Shown here in pieces: positions 1 to 3,380 of a stretch of DNA of 64,000 bases (its first letter is position 1; the number at the start of each line of letters is the position of its first letter). The position numbers and the translations under genes are program-made. Source of the stretch: Escherichia phage KEP3. Below the pieces are notes generated by a model that saw nothing but the letters and a program-made list of their open reading frames with translations, was not told the origin of the DNA and ran no database searches. The stretch is from sequence record PP047753; one strand, 5' to 3'.

Positions 1-84
1 TGATGAAGTTTTCTTGAGTAGTTCCGTGATAGCATTTCATTTTTGAATCTCCAGTTTAGGATTTAGTGGTAAAGCTCTTTATCT

Positions 85-113
85 GGGGCTTACTTTATCG
101 AACTATAAGCCCC
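85..113 (-). repeat. type-1 intergenic cassette hairpin GGGGCTTA-N13-TAAGCCCC (copy 1)
   Basis: 8-bp perfect stem; flanked by conserved about 90-bp cassette ending in RBS. Confidence 0.6.
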
Positions 114-125
114 TTGTAAAGTACT

Positions 126-329
126 TTAACGATTATTTTTGACAACTTTTAAAACTGCAAGATAACCTAAGCAATAAGAATCACCGAAGAGAGTTCTACC
201 CATGAAAGAATCCTCTTTGATATCCTTTGCAGTGACAGTTTTTTCTACGCCGTGGGAAAGGACTACATCCCCAACTTTGATGTCTTTGATGTGTGTTGTT
301 TCAATGGTTAAGCCGTTAATATTAGCCAT
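126..329 (-). CDS. hypothetical early protein (67 aa)
   Basis: ORF preceded by conserved cassette RBS (rc of ctcctag = CTAGGAG) 6-8 nt upstream of ATG; no recognisable motif. Confidence 0.5.
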   Translation of the reverse strand: MANINGLTIETTHIKDIKVGDVVLSHGVEKTVTAKDIKEDSFMGRTLFGDSYCLGYLAVLKVVKNNR

Positions 330-394
330 TTTAGAATCTCCTAGTTTAAGGATTTTACTTAGTGGGGAAGGTCATTCCCTCCCCGTTGATGAGT

Positions 395-423
395 AATTTA
401 ATCTATCTAGAAATCAATGTCAA
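395..423 (-). promoter_or_regulatory. sigma70-like early promoter TTGACA-N17-TAAATT (type-2 cassette copy 1)
   Basis: rc of 418..423 = TTGACA, 17-nt spacer, rc of 395..400 = TAAATT; followed by G-rich 5' UTR hairpin 364..384 and RBS. Confidence 0.55.
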
Positions 424-430
424 CAGTTTT

Positions 431-835
431 TTAGAGTTCTGCGTAAATTGCGTCACAAATATCACGAAAATCATGATTTGTTAAATTACGTTGCAACCAT
501 GTTGCAAAAAAGTCAGCAATTGCAAAATTTGCGTCATACTCGACAGATAGCCACACTTTCACGGCAAAACGAAACATTTTTAAATCAAGCTCTTTATTCA
601 TTACCTTTGATTTGCCTAACATGTCAGCCATTTCATATTGTGCACCGTCTAGCGTGATACCTGCTGCAACGTCAGCCAATGAGTTTTTTACACTTTCAAC
701 GTCTAAGATAACACTTTGAATCTTCCCGATAATATTGTGCAATGTCTCATCAGGTGCTGATGATGTAATAACATTAATCCGGTTAACGGTTAAACGTGCT
801 TTTAAGATTGATAACTCACGGTTATTAATAGTCAT
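431..835 (-). CDS. hypothetical early protein (134 aa)
   Basis: ORF with GGAGA RBS upstream; same orientation as block. Confidence 0.55.
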   Translation of the reverse strand: MTINNRELSILKARLTVNRINVITSSAPDETLHNIIGKIQSVILDVESVKNSLADVAAGITLDGAQYEMADMLGKSKVMNKELDLKMFRFAVKVWLSVEYDANFAIADFFATWLQRNLTNHDFRDICDAIYAEL

Positions 836-879
836 TTTAGAATCTCCAATTTAGGATTTAGTGGTAAAGCTCTTTATCT

Positions 880-908
880 GGGGCTTACTTTATCGAACTA
901 TAAGCCCC
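880..908 (-). repeat. type-1 intergenic cassette hairpin (copy 2)
   Basis: Identical hairpin and flanks as copy 1. Confidence 0.6.
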
Positions 909-920
909 TTGTAAAGTACT

Positions 921-1193
921 TTATACTAAATGCAGCTTTTTACCTTTTACTATGATGTAACTTGATGCGCTATTGCCGCATACATCTTGATAAATTCTGC
1001 GCAAACGGCCTTCGTAGTGGACTTTCCAGCTAGTTGGAATCTTTTTCCCGTATCCGGTAGCAGTTTTTTGGAGTCCTGCTACTTGCCAATCTAAGATATG
1101 TTGCTCAGCTTGTAAATCTTCAAAGTGCATCACACCATCAACATAGTGACGTAGAGTGACATTTAAAGTACGACCGTTGTTAGTAGTATACAT
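921..1193 (-). CDS. hypothetical early protein (90 aa)
   Basis: ORF with cassette RBS (CTAGGAGATTC) upstream. Confidence 0.55.
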   Translation of the reverse strand: MYTTNNGRTLNVTLRHYVDGVMHFEDLQAEQHILDWQVAGLQKTATGYGKKIPTSWKVHYEGRLRRIYQDVCGNSASSYIIVKGKKLHLV

Positions 1194-1215
1194 TTTGAAT
1201 CTCCTAGTTTAAGGC

Positions 1216-1374
1216 TTATTTTGACAGTTCACTAATTAAGACATCAAAGATTATATCATTATCTGCTACAGTTGCAACACCAGTGATATAATCAATTTCT
1301 AAGATAACAACAACTTTCGTACATAAACCGTCATCTATATCATTCCAGACAACTTTATCACCTGCACAAAACAT
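1216..1374 (-). CDS. small hypothetical protein (52 aa, MFCAGDKVVWNDIDDGLCTKVV...)
   Basis: Not in ORF track (<60 aa); hand-translated; ATG at 1374 preceded by the same conserved RBS cassette (CTAGGAGACTC) and type-2 promoter cassette. Confidence 0.45.
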   Translation of the reverse strand: MFCAGDKVVWNDIDDGLCTKVVVILEIDYITGVATVADNDIIFDVLISELSK

Positions 1375-1440
1375 TTTTTGAGTCTCCTAGTTTAAGGACT
1401 TTACTTAGTGGGGAAGGTTATTCCCTCCCCGTTGATGTGT

Positions 1441-1469
1441 AATTTAGTCTATCTAAAAACCAGTGTCAA
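1441..1469 (-). promoter_or_regulatory. sigma70-like early promoter TTGACA-N17-TAAATT (type-2 cassette copy 2)
   Basis: Same architecture as copy 1, nearly identical flanks. Confidence 0.55.
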
Positions 1470-1798
1470 CAGTTTTGTTTTCGTTTGCTCAATTCTTGAA
1501 CAATTACAGCGTAGTAGTCTTTTAAGTCACTGATATTTAAAGCATTTATCAGAGAATTATAATCATCGACTAACTGGAAATCATCCTTGAAGATGTCACT
1601 TATCTGATAGGTTTTCGCTTTGAATCTGAAGCTCATCTCTAGCCGCTTTATTTGCTCATCACTGAGACGCCCTAGAAAGCTCTCTACAAGGTTATTGCTA
1701 ACCTGCTGTGTGATTGCCTTATTTGCTAGATTATAGGCTTTATATGCCTTATATAGCGCTAAAATGGCAATGATTGCAGTGATACCAGTCATTAACAT
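1466..1798 (-). CDS. hypothetical membrane-anchored protein (110 aa)
   Basis: N-terminal hydrophobic helix (GITAIIAILALY); AGAGGAAA RBS upstream. Confidence 0.55.
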   Translation of the reverse strand: MLMTGITAIIAILALYKAYKAYNLANKAITQQVSNNLVESFLGRLSDEQIKRLEMSFRFKAKTYQISDIFKDDFQLVDDYNSLINALNISDLKDYYAVIVQELSKRKQNC

Positions 1799-2088
1799 GG
1801 TGTTTCCTCTTTACGTGATACTTTGCCATTTACAGTTATCTCATAGGATTCTAATAAATCGCTTTTAGACTTTACAGGGCTTTTGAAAGTATCATCATAG
1901 ATATTGACTTGTAATACAGGTTTTTTATATTCCCTGCAACTATTCCATAAGCAAATCACTACACGACGGCCTTTGATTTTTCCGTGTAACCATTCCATAA
2001 CATCATGACTATTCCTTGATGTCTCGATAAAATCGATTTTGTTGAGTAACTTGCTTAAATTTTCACGGACTTTATTTGATAATTTCAT
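1792..2088 (-). CDS. hypothetical protein (98 aa)
   Basis: ORF with cassette RBS upstream. Confidence 0.5.
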   Translation of the reverse strand: MKLSNKVRENLSKLLNKIDFIETSRNSHDVMEWLHGKIKGRRVVICLWNSCREYKKPVLQVNIYDDTFKSPVKSKSDLLESYEITVNGKVSRKEETPC

Positions 2089-2103
2089 TTTTGAATCTCC
2101 AGT

Positions 2104-2316
2104 TTAGGATAAAATAGTAATCGTAAAATTGTAATGACCATTAAGCTGATAAACATAACAGTTAGAGAATACACCAACTAACCGAGGTTTTCCATAAATT
2201 TTCATGCGCTCTTTAATCTCTTTGAGAGATTTCAAACCTGTAAGGTCTTTATTGAAATAGTCATCATCTGTGAATAGGACTTGTGAGGCGGTTTTCAGTT
2301 TTTGATTAATGTTCAT
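2104..2316 (-). CDS. hypothetical protein (70 aa)
   Basis: ORF with cassette RBS upstream. Confidence 0.45.
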   Translation of the reverse strand: MNINQKLKTASQVLFTDDDYFNKDLTGLKSLKEIKERMKIYGKPRLVGVFSNCYVYQLNGHYNFTITILS

Positions 2317-2360
2317 TTTTGAATCTCCAGTTTAGGATTTAGTGGTAAAGCTCTTTATCT

Positions 2361-2389
2361 GGGGCTTAAGATACCAACTTTTAAGCCCC
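2361..2389 (-). repeat. type-1 intergenic cassette hairpin (copy 3; same stem, different loop)
   Basis: GGGGCTTAA-N11-TTAAGCCCC; loop sequence differs while stem is kept. Confidence 0.55.
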
Positions 2390-2404
2390 CTGTAAAGTAC
2401 TTTA

Positions 2405-2695
2405 TCAGTTAATTTTCAGCTTTGCATGACCTCTCATTGTACGAATGGGGGATGTTAAGGCTACGCGTCTAATATATGCCTTTTTCGTGTATACATTTGC
2501 CTTCCCGATAGTGTTTACACATGTAAAAAGGTTTATTGGTGAATTTTTTAACTTCAACTGTCTATCAGTCTTCACGCCCCATCTTACAGCAGATTGTTTT
2601 CCGTTGTCAACCACTTTCCCGCCTAACTTTTTCGCCATAATACGAGCGTCATCACGAGTTTTTGCAGGAATTACAACGTTTTTGATAATAGCCAT
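2405..2695 (-). CDS. hypothetical basic protein (about 96 aa)
   Basis: Start moved to Met6 of track ORF (ATG 2695) because GGAGAA RBS sits immediately upstream; Lys/Arg-rich. Confidence 0.5.
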   Translation of the reverse strand: MAIIKNVVIPAKTRDDARIMAKKLGGKVVDNGKQSAVRWGVKTDRQLKLKNSPINLFTCVNTIGKANVYTKKAYIRRVALTSPIRTMRGHAKLKIN

Positions 2696-2740
2696 TTTTA
2701 AGTTCTCCAATTTAGGATTTAGTGGTAAAGCTCTTTATCT

Positions 2741-2769
2741 GGGGCTTACTTTATCGAACTATAAGCCCC
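2741..2769 (-). repeat. type-1 intergenic cassette hairpin (copy 4)
   Basis: Identical to copy 1. Confidence 0.6.
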
Positions 2770-2783
2770 TTGTAAAGTACTTT

Positions 2784-3164
2784 TTATTTAATTTTGAAGA
2801 TTGTCACGTAGCCATCACTGCCGATGATTTGTGATACCCCAGCTTTTTCTACTTGATAGCCCATATTTTCCAGATGATAGATAGCATCGTCATAACCATA
2901 TGCACCGCCCTGATAACGTCGCTTATCACATCTTACTAAAACCTTTCCACGTCCTGCCAGTGCATTTAGTACAGCTTTTTCACTTGATAGCGTACCATCT
3001 ATCATGGTTGCCGTGTAATGGTTGATTTTATTCCCGTTGATATCATACTTGAAATTGAACGAGTGAACAACGATAACGTTACCTTTAAAATTCTCATCAA
3101 GTGACTTCTCCAGTGCGTTGCGAAAGTTGTCTTTATTGATGAATTTAGGTGCACGGTATGCCAT
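2784..3164 (-). CDS. hypothetical protein (126 aa)
   Basis: ORF with cassette RBS and TTGACT-N17-TAATAT promoter upstream. Confidence 0.55.
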   Translation of the reverse strand: MAYRAPKFINKDNFRNALEKSLDENFKGNVIVVHSFNFKYDINGNKINHYTATMIDGTLSSEKAVLNALAGRGKVLVRCDKRRYQGGAYGYDDAIYHLENMGYQVEKAGVSQIIGSDGYVTIFKIK

Positions 3165-3230
3165 TTTAGAATCTCCTAGTTTAAGGTTAGTTATTTAGTG
3201 GGGAAGGTTATTCCCTCTCCGTTGATGCAA

Positions 3231-3259
3231 ATATTAGATAACCATAGCCAAAGAGTCAA
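3231..3259 (-). promoter_or_regulatory. sigma70-like early promoter TTGACT-N17-TAATAT (type-2 cassette copy 3)
   Basis: Same architecture; drives 2784..3164. Confidence 0.5.
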
Positions 3260-3380
3260 GAAAAATTTTAAAAATATTTTTGAAAAAACTGTAATGGAAC
3301 GGGCGCACGCGACTACCACAAAACAGAACTACAATCAAGAATTATTTTTCAATCCGCTACAAATTTTTCTCTTGACTTTT

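Follow-up and report, generated by a model that had tools for sequence, protein, structure and literature searches.

What are the repeated sequences that precede most of a group of small minus-strand genes in the Escherichia phage KEP3 sequence PP047753, and what do the hairpins in them do? In the 64,000-nucleotide stretch analysed here (the window), reading of the strand together with a repeat finder located, on the minus strand at 38-3267, four cassettes of one kind (Type 1), three of another (Type 2) and two modules consisting only of a ribosome-binding site (RBS). The seven cassettes, 91-106 bp in length, are those described in an earlier note on this DNA. No others were found in the 64 kb, the nearest thing being a promoter with a hairpin in its spacer at 9312-9283. 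In our view the cassettes are probably units of the type known as promoter-early stem-loops (PeSLs), whose hairpins act in the sense RNA and which serve as recombination sites for orphan genes.

Two cassette types upstream of small genes

The region 1-4200 of the window is 99.9% identical to Escherichia phage vB_EcoM_DE17 (OP595146.1, Felixounavirus), and about 250 Felix O1-type phages align to it at 85-93%, split into several pieces. The cassette-served genes, all on the minus strand, are counterparts of Felix O1 open reading frames (ORFs) ~14-22 and form a cluster, variable in gene content among relatives, that lies downstream of a macro-domain 'phosphatase' gene and terminator t13. Nine small ORFs served by cassettes fall in PHROGs families without a known function or in none, not one of the nine has a Pfam match above the family cut-off, and by these searches they are orphans. 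The earlier proposal that every early gene is a self-contained unit has to be narrowed: seven of ten genes have a full cassette, two have an RBS module alone, and the tenth overlaps the gene before it. The array extends past the window's left edge: in the DE17 record four further Type 2-like cassettes follow, whose stems differ.

For comparison, we assembled the upstream regions of early genes, 125 in all, from ten phages that represent four Ounavirinae genera: Felixounavirus (DE17, wV8 and Felix O1), Suspvirus (SUSP1), Mooglevirus (Moogle, Michonne, Sf14 and Silverhawkium) and Kolesnikvirus (MM7 and phi63_307). These regions included 43 of Type 1 and 48 of Type 2. The unclassed ones are mostly Erwinia-phage variants with another G/C stem around the -10 hexamer (GGGGTTA...TAACCCC or GGGGG-TTAAAAT-CCCCC), and a few are ordinary terminators or RBS-only joints. 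Since a best-promoter shuffle test was uninformative in AT-rich DNA, it was dropped and conservation in a fixed register was used instead. A consensus promoter scan recovered all seven window cassettes in one register and with 17-bp spacing, in keeping with the host-type promoters claimed earlier.

In Type 1, TTTACANGGGGCTTA has four exact matches in the window (120-106, 915-901, 2396-2382 and 2776-2762), and the hairpin has the form GGGGCTTA(T)...(G)TAAGCCCC with a stem of 8-9 bp. As had been noticed before, one copy keeps this stem with another loop; it is the copy at 2396 (AAAGTTGGTATC), the sole deviating loop in the window. No promoter had been reported for Type 1, yet every window copy is promoter-like (TTTACA-N17-TAAAGT or TATCTT), with the hairpin arms astride the -10 hexamer, and TTTACA-N17/18-TAnnnT was found in 43/43 Type 1 regions of the ten phages. 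TTTACA is preceded by TAA-AGTAC at the beginning of the cassette. The 5' arm occupies the start of the spacer, and the last base of the -10 hexamer is the first of the 3' arm; between the arms the only invariant bases are T1 and A2 of the -10, T6 being invariant as well but forming the innermost base of the 3' arm. Predicted starts fall at or near the 3' foot of the hairpin (~85-84, 880-879, 2361-2360 and 2741-2740). Since the arms flank the -10 and end at or just before the predicted start, the cassette's own transcript could not contain the hairpin, which would therefore be present only in RNA read through from upstream. A TAAAGT upstream of the Type 1 -35, which as a second -10 would put the hairpin at the 5' end, was considered and rejected, since in a few copies inspected by eye it has no -35 above it. 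A second Type 1 class has the inner stem TTATC/GATAG instead of CTTA/TAAG. In Type 1 cassettes (window 75-125 and other copies), CTTTA of the -35 region can also pair with TAAAG of the conserved AGATAAAG, giving a possible 5-bp outer helix round the GC stem, all of whose pairs (5/5) are invariant in 29 sequences and so show no covariation.

The Type 2 hairpin, GGGGAGGGAATRACCTTCCCC, is exact at 384-364 and 1430-1410 and has one mismatch at 3220-3200, against 0.00 matches expected by chance. Two window copies have the promoter TTGACA-N17-TAAATT and a stem with one G-U pair, as the earlier note had it for all three; the third has TTGACT-N17-TAATAT and is degenerate, with an additional A-C mismatch in the stem and a folding energy of -8.3 kcal/mol versus about -15 for the others. 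The hairpin begins 10 nt past the -10, a distance that is found in 48/48 Type 2 regions but is part of the classifying pattern, and the predicted 5' leader has about 2-4 unpaired nt. Every Type 2 region of the ten-phage set has a TTGACA-like hexamer, N17 and TAnnnT. Several families of unlike sequence can be told apart among the spacers, some of which lie within the upstream coding sequence, while the hexamers and the 17-bp spacing remain constant. The information content is highest at the TTG of the -35 hexamer, at positions T1, A2 and T6 in the -10, in the upstream A-tract and at ATCAAC. We infer from the conserved hexamers and spacing of both types that selection has acted on them as sigma-70 promoters. 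A short way ahead of the first cassette in the array, a 32-nt pyrimidine tract (GCCCCTCTTCCCCTCTTACTCCCCCTCTCCCC, 3381-3412, minus strand), C-rich and G-poor, resembles a Rho-loading site and is partly complementary to the GGGGAGGG arms of Type 2 hairpins.

The features of the array are as follows.

128-38, minus strand: Type 1 cassette a; stop codon of the upstream gene 128-126, -35 TTTACA 120-115, hairpin 113-85, -10 TAAAGT 97-92 within the hairpin loop and 3' arm, predicted start ~85-84, RBS module 58-38, ATG 40-38; the served gene leaves the window
430-327, minus strand: Type 2 cassette a; A-rich tract upstream, -35 TTGACA 423-418, -10 TAAATT 400-395 followed by ACTCATCAAC, hairpin 384-364 (GGGGAGGG-AATGA-CCTTCCCC, one G-U), RBS module 348-327; for ORF 329-126
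923-833, minus strand: Type 1 cassette b; -35 915-910, hairpin 908-880, -10 892-887, RBS 853-833; for ORF 835-431
1214-1191, minus strand: RBS-only module CCTTAAACTAGGAGATTCAAAATG upstream of ORF 1193-921; right-hand junction of a DE17-specific insertion
1374-1216, minus strand: ORF of 52 aa, in DE17 and not in Felix O1 or wV8; between two RBS-module copies
1477-1372, minus strand: Type 2 cassette b; -35 1469-1464, -10 1446-1441, hairpin 1430-1410, RBS 1394-1372
2109-2086, minus strand: RBS-only module CCTAAACTGGAGATTCAAAAATG upstream of ORF 2088-1792; junction of a second DE17-specific insertion
2316-2104, minus strand: ORF of 70 aa, in DE17 and not at this position in wV8 or Felix O1; flanked by two RBS modules
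2404-2314, minus strand: Type 1 cassette c, the variant copy; -35 2396-2391, hairpin 2389-2361 with the other loop, -10 TATCTT 2373-2368, RBS 2334-2314
2784-2693, minus strand: Type 1 cassette d; -35 2776-2771, hairpin 2769-2741, -10 2753-2748, RBS variant TAAATTGGAGAACTTAAAAATG, ATG 2695-2693
3267-3162, minus strand: Type 2 cassette c, first of the array; -35 TTGACT 3259-3254, -10 TAATAT 3236-3231, hairpin 3220-3200 (GGAGAGGG..., one A-C mismatch, weaker), RBS 3183-3162

Selection on the hairpins and their possible roles

On comparative grounds the hairpins are selected structures, and it is pairing on the sense strand that is selected, which bears out the earlier view of them as RNA hairpins. 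Fold z-scores of the window hairpins range from -2.1 to -4.4. In Type 1, 98.4% of cells are paired, a value reached in 0/500 shuffles; the stem pairs include, in Kolesnikvirus, a double change from G-C to U-A, and also an alternation of C-G with U-G; and in 24/25 stems folding is better for the sense than for the antisense strand. For Type 2, 24 different stems were counted, all in the same place, with five pair types at stem position 5 and three at position 6 (numbered from the stem base in the RNAfold register, the length of the G-run being variable). Its paired fraction is 0.90, compared with 0.81 +/- 0.02 for permuted arms (0/2000 as high); RNAfold registers with arm permutation were used here, a MAFFT alignment having placed the 3' arms out of register. 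At non-Watson-Crick positions there are 23 G-U against 3 A-C in Type 1, and 11 against 2 in Type 2, counts that include inherited states, so that independent events are fewer. Together with arm distances of ~4-13 nt, the G-U excess favours RNA over a duplex operator.

It is rather unlikely, in our judgement, that the hairpins act as efficient intrinsic terminators, the role put forward for PeSLs, so that transcription terminates and re-initiates at each fully insulated gene. The lack of a U-tract points to weak termination at best. None of the 90 hairpins counted is followed by one, there being 1-2 T among the 8 nt past the stem in 90/90, a terminator scan of window 1-4500 gave no terminator-like site, and elsewhere in the same cluster the phage employs ordinary hairpin and T-run terminators, at the beginning (t13, window 3660-3610), in the middle and at the end. 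What speaks for termination is the intergenic position of the hairpins, with many copies ~12-13 nt past the upstream stop codon, their GC-rich stems (-10 to -16 kcal/mol) and the finding that one RB49 PeSL stem-loop cut lacZ expression about as strongly as rrnB T1 (PMC2839356). A role of the inverted repeats as DNA, either as operators for a dimeric phage or host repressor or as promoter-modulating cruciforms, would suit their classic operator positions (over the -10 in Type 1, at ~+4 to +25 in Type 2) and the need of early genes for later shut-off; it is nonetheless very unlikely, since the arm distances and differing stems go beyond what one DNA-binding dimer would read and since a duplex palindrome would give no strand bias, whereas the mismatches are nearly all sense-strand G-T.

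Recognition of the hairpins and their flanks as RNA sites by a specific protein, be it nut/boxB-like antitermination, a phage endoribonuclease or a translational regulator, would explain their fixed register relative to the promoter, the conserved flanks (ATCAAC ahead of Type 2 hairpins and ACTAA behind them, AGATAAAGAG behind those of Type 1), the GAAA or GAGA tetraloops of Mooglevirus and Suspvirus copies and the nearly invariant RBS module with its GGAG; the Felix O1 authors were, moreover, unable to explain transcription past many terminators (PMC3185647). We consider this quite unlikely as well: the loops, unlike boxB, are free in sequence and length, the conservation of AGATAAAG may reflect only its pairing with CTTTA of the -35 region, no partner protein was identified, and an Rfam scan of 1-4200 at a permissive E-value gave chance matches only, none with an E-value < 0.4 and all far under the gathering scores. 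Scarcely credible, finally, is the view that the repeats arose just through duplication and gene conversion and do nothing of their own apart from providing the RBS. Copies are indeed more alike within one genome than are orthologous copies between genomes, but types and geometry persist (Type 1 in four genera, Type 2 in three), critical promoter bases are invariant amid varying neighbours, and stems change in a compensatory manner.

Several points weigh against interpreting the cassettes as PeSL-type units. A BLAST search with an RB49 PeSL against all phage records gave no Ounavirinae match, and membership in the class is assigned by architecture because BLAST detects no homology. One RB49 PeSL stem-loop was measured as a strong terminator (PMC2839356), whereas the Ounavirinae hairpins are without a U-tract. 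The covariation in Type 1 amounts to few independent events, one compensatory change being common to all six Kolesnikvirus sequences, and the pairing of TTTACA with TAAAG might make part of the Type 1 conservation structural and not promoter-related. By reverse transcription-PCR of Felix O1, ORFs 16 and 20-22 were maximal at 5 min, which speaks indirectly for the promoters, but ORFs 17, 19 and 23, likewise behind cassettes, were maximal at 25 min (PMC3185647). Lastly, no start-site, 3'-end or half-life data or transcriptomes for Felix O1-type phages were found in the literature searched, and it is for this reason that promoter activity, start sites and the effect of the hairpins on RNA are here deduced from sequence.

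Each unit of ~90-100 bp opens at or just past the upstream stop codon and comprises, in order, an A-rich tract, a predicted sigma-70 promoter, a G-run/C-run stem-loop and an initiation module ending in ATG; if the cassettes are indeed PeSL-type, the promoter would be read by host RNA polymerase from the predicted start sites. The structured 5' untranslated region envisaged in the earlier note would then apply to Type 2, by its predicted start, and not to Type 1, in which the hairpin lies upstream of its own start. The Type 2 hairpin, near the 5' end of its own transcript, would hinder RppH and RNase E and lengthen the life of the mRNA, a role suggested by its geometry and by the established rules of E. 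coli mRNA decay (PMC3997798). For Type 1 the most economical reading, and the likeliest, is that the hairpin, present in read-through RNA alone, serves to attenuate or punctuate the transcription arriving from upstream and to cap the preceding message at its 3' end. The two types would offer a ready-made contrast, hairpin before the start versus hairpin after it, for hairpin effects on phage mRNA.

Gene shuffling and the surroundings of the array

The RBS module TAAAYTRGAGATTCWAAAATG, which contains GGAG and is near-invariant, has 6 matches in the window versus 0.02 expected. Compared with wV8 and Felix O1, DE17 has two extra ORFs, of 52 aa (1374-1216) and 70 aa (2316-2104), each with an RBS-module copy on both sides; the inserted unit was therefore one ORF plus one RBS module. 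An orthologous 342-nt gene stands behind a Type 1 cassette in wV8 and behind a Type 2 cassette in Felix O1, and 8 of the 9 homology blocks between DE17 and Michonne start ~20-130 nt from cassette start codons. The loops of Type 1 are identical among the copies of one genome and unlike at orthologous positions between genomes, a pattern that indicates gene conversion. Cassette-flanked gene content thus differs among related phages, with insertions and deletions bounded by RBS modules, and the recombinational shuffling of early genes suspected earlier is supported by these joints. Because ~25-90 bp are common to different cassettes, they can be regarded as recombination sites at which homologous recombination and gene conversion would insert, delete and swap orphan genes. 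The cassettes would accordingly mark sites of gain and loss of orphan early genes that are candidates for host takeover or anti-defence, and they may provide natural landing pads for engineering as well as compact parts with a predicted strong promoter and RBS.

The RBS modules (e.g. 61-48, 351-337 and 2337-2324) also carry a short complement of their own Shine-Dalgarno (SD) sequence 6 nt upstream of it. Its forms are TCC-TAAACT-GGA (76 copies) and CCT-TAAACT-AGG (15 copies), the extra T always occurring with the extra A, and the form in Erwinia phages is CCTT-ATA-AAGG. The complement could form a small hairpin masking the SD, or the two forms could merely be two module lineages.

Between t13 and the first cassette (3439-3614, minus strand) there are four copies of TCATTTT-N6-GTGCAG versus 0.19 expected. 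At the same place 2-4 copies are present in Felixounavirus, Suspvirus and Mooglevirus and none in two Kolesnikvirus loci; this is possibly a protein-binding array governing entry to the early cluster. The gene upstream of the cassette array (window 3688-4473, minus strand), annotated as 'phosphatase' in relatives, encodes a Macro domain (Pfam E = 1e-7), which suggests an ADP-ribose-processing early protein. Far from the array, at 47140-47173 on the minus strand, TTTACAGGGGCTTTATAGCCCCTTTT joins a -35-like hexamer to a short hairpin with a T-run directly ahead of a start codon.

Two further sites lie to the left of the window, in the DE17 record (locus L001). A spacer of 216 bp within the array (6551-6766), unusually long, contains a C-first hairpin (CCCCTTGACAA...TTGTTCGAGGGG) and a close pair of TTGAC hexamers, and the Sf14 record begins within this spacer. 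Past the double terminator that closes the early cluster, ~1.6 kb of non-coding sequence (3715-5380) is dense in short repeats resembling CTTGTTAAG and CTGTTAAG and may hold the genome terminus, a packaging signal or an origin. UAB_Phi87 was set aside as a guide to the position of the array relative to the physical genome end, its record start not being the terminus.

Comparison with PeSLs and other known systems

PeSLs were described in the T4-type phages RB49, phi1, PST and nt-1 (PMC2839356, Arbiol et al. 2010; PMC4122927, Comeau et al. 2014). Those of RB49 and phi1, of ~100 bp, begin with an AT-rich tract that holds a stop codon, continue with a sigma-70 promoter and a polyG/polyC stem-loop that includes G-T pairs, and end in an SD and an ATG, with the stem-loop placed in the -35/-10 spacer, over the -10 or after it (PMC2839356). 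They lie among orphan genes in hyperplastic regions and mediate modular shuffling (PMC2839356; PMC4122927). The Ounavirinae cassettes have in common with them the order of parts, the length of ~100 bp, the sigma-70 hexamers with proper spacing, the upstream stop codon, the AT-rich tract above the -35 (as a conserved A-tract in Type 2), the G-run/C-run stem-loop with G-T pairs and the SD and ATG at the 3' end, as well as clustering among small orphan early genes and indels joined at the cassettes. Judged by this architecture, the cassettes are PeSL-type elements in a second, unrelated phage subfamily, the Ounavirinae; no papers linking PeSLs to the Felix O1 group were found in the literature searched.

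When the RB49 PeSLs were read directly, the same three hairpin placements were seen as in the Ounavirinae cassettes: one design straddles the -10 (GGAGTA-g-TAAGAT-ACTCC) and another has its hairpin 10 nt past the -10. A hairpin-filled spacer is common in RB49, whereas the window has it once, at 9312-9283, the two other placements dominating in Ounavirinae. In that single case (9283-9312, minus strand) TTGACA-AGGGGCTTCAAAGCCCCT-TAGAAT has a GC hairpin filling the promoter spacer, and the same design is present in Silverhawkium (L010:10129-10256). RB49 and Ounavirinae cassettes also have the RBS GGAGAATCAAAATG in common and similar sequences just past the -10, and five RB49 PeSLs carry the 12-mer GGAGA[AT]TC[AT]AAA, which in the window is confined to cassettes and RBS modules. 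The two groups differ in lineage, PeSLs belonging to the Straboviridae and the present cassettes to Ounavirinae with genomes of ~86 kb, and in what is known of them: promoter strength in vivo, termination or attenuation by the stem-loop, and mini-circles that arise by recombination between flanking cassettes are traits from the T4-type side, while the Ounavirinae cassettes are known here as sequences. Because the RBS 12-mer, the sequences past the -10 and the three hairpin placements are common to the Krischvirus RB49 and Ounavirinae, the cassettes might even be, beyond convergent units, a class of mobile regulatory element spread across unrelated coliphage lineages. Their hairpins, which have no U-tract, are selected on the sense strand and keep conserved flanks, might then be recognised by an RNA-binding factor, of host or phage, dedicated to them. 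We think this distinctly improbable; if true, such a factor would control the whole set of early orphan genes post-transcriptionally.

Other known structures match in part. Rho-independent terminators are alike in having a GC-rich stem-loop directly past a gene and differ in their T-run, which the cassettes do not have. A lambda-type nut site (boxA and boxB) is not matched, as the loops vary in length and sequence and each operon has many copies of the hairpin, though an N-like protein was not searched for. A G-rich stem-loop is found at the 5' end of the T7 gene 10 mRNA. Structures at the 5' end stabilise E. coli mRNA, as do the stem-loops in the 5' untranslated regions of ompA and papA (PMC3997798). 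Type 2, with a stable G-first hairpin ~2-4 nt from the predicted 5' end, would resemble these stabilisers, whose geometry blocks RppH and 5'-end-dependent attack by RNase E, and Type 1 does not fit, since its hairpin is upstream of its own start.

The repeats themselves have been recorded before. The Felix O1 paper lists direct repeats of 57 bp and 39 bp without interpretation (Whichard et al. 2010, PMC3185647); the former corresponds to Type 1 and the latter to the Type 2 promoter. In the GenBank record of wV8, the cassette repeats are annotated as DR_1 to DR_9; the wV8 paper makes no mention of repeats, and a comparative paper on Felixounavirus contained nothing relevant. These listings concern the same sequences but give them no promoter, hairpin or shuffling role, so that the present reading would assign a function to repeats listed without comment in both records. 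The Felix O1 paper also named five promoters, all elsewhere, and called temporal control unknown (PMC3185647); the cassettes would supply the candidate early promoters of Felix O1-type phages that are missing from it. The PeSL concept would thereby be widened from the T4-type phages to an unrelated subfamily of phages in therapeutic use.

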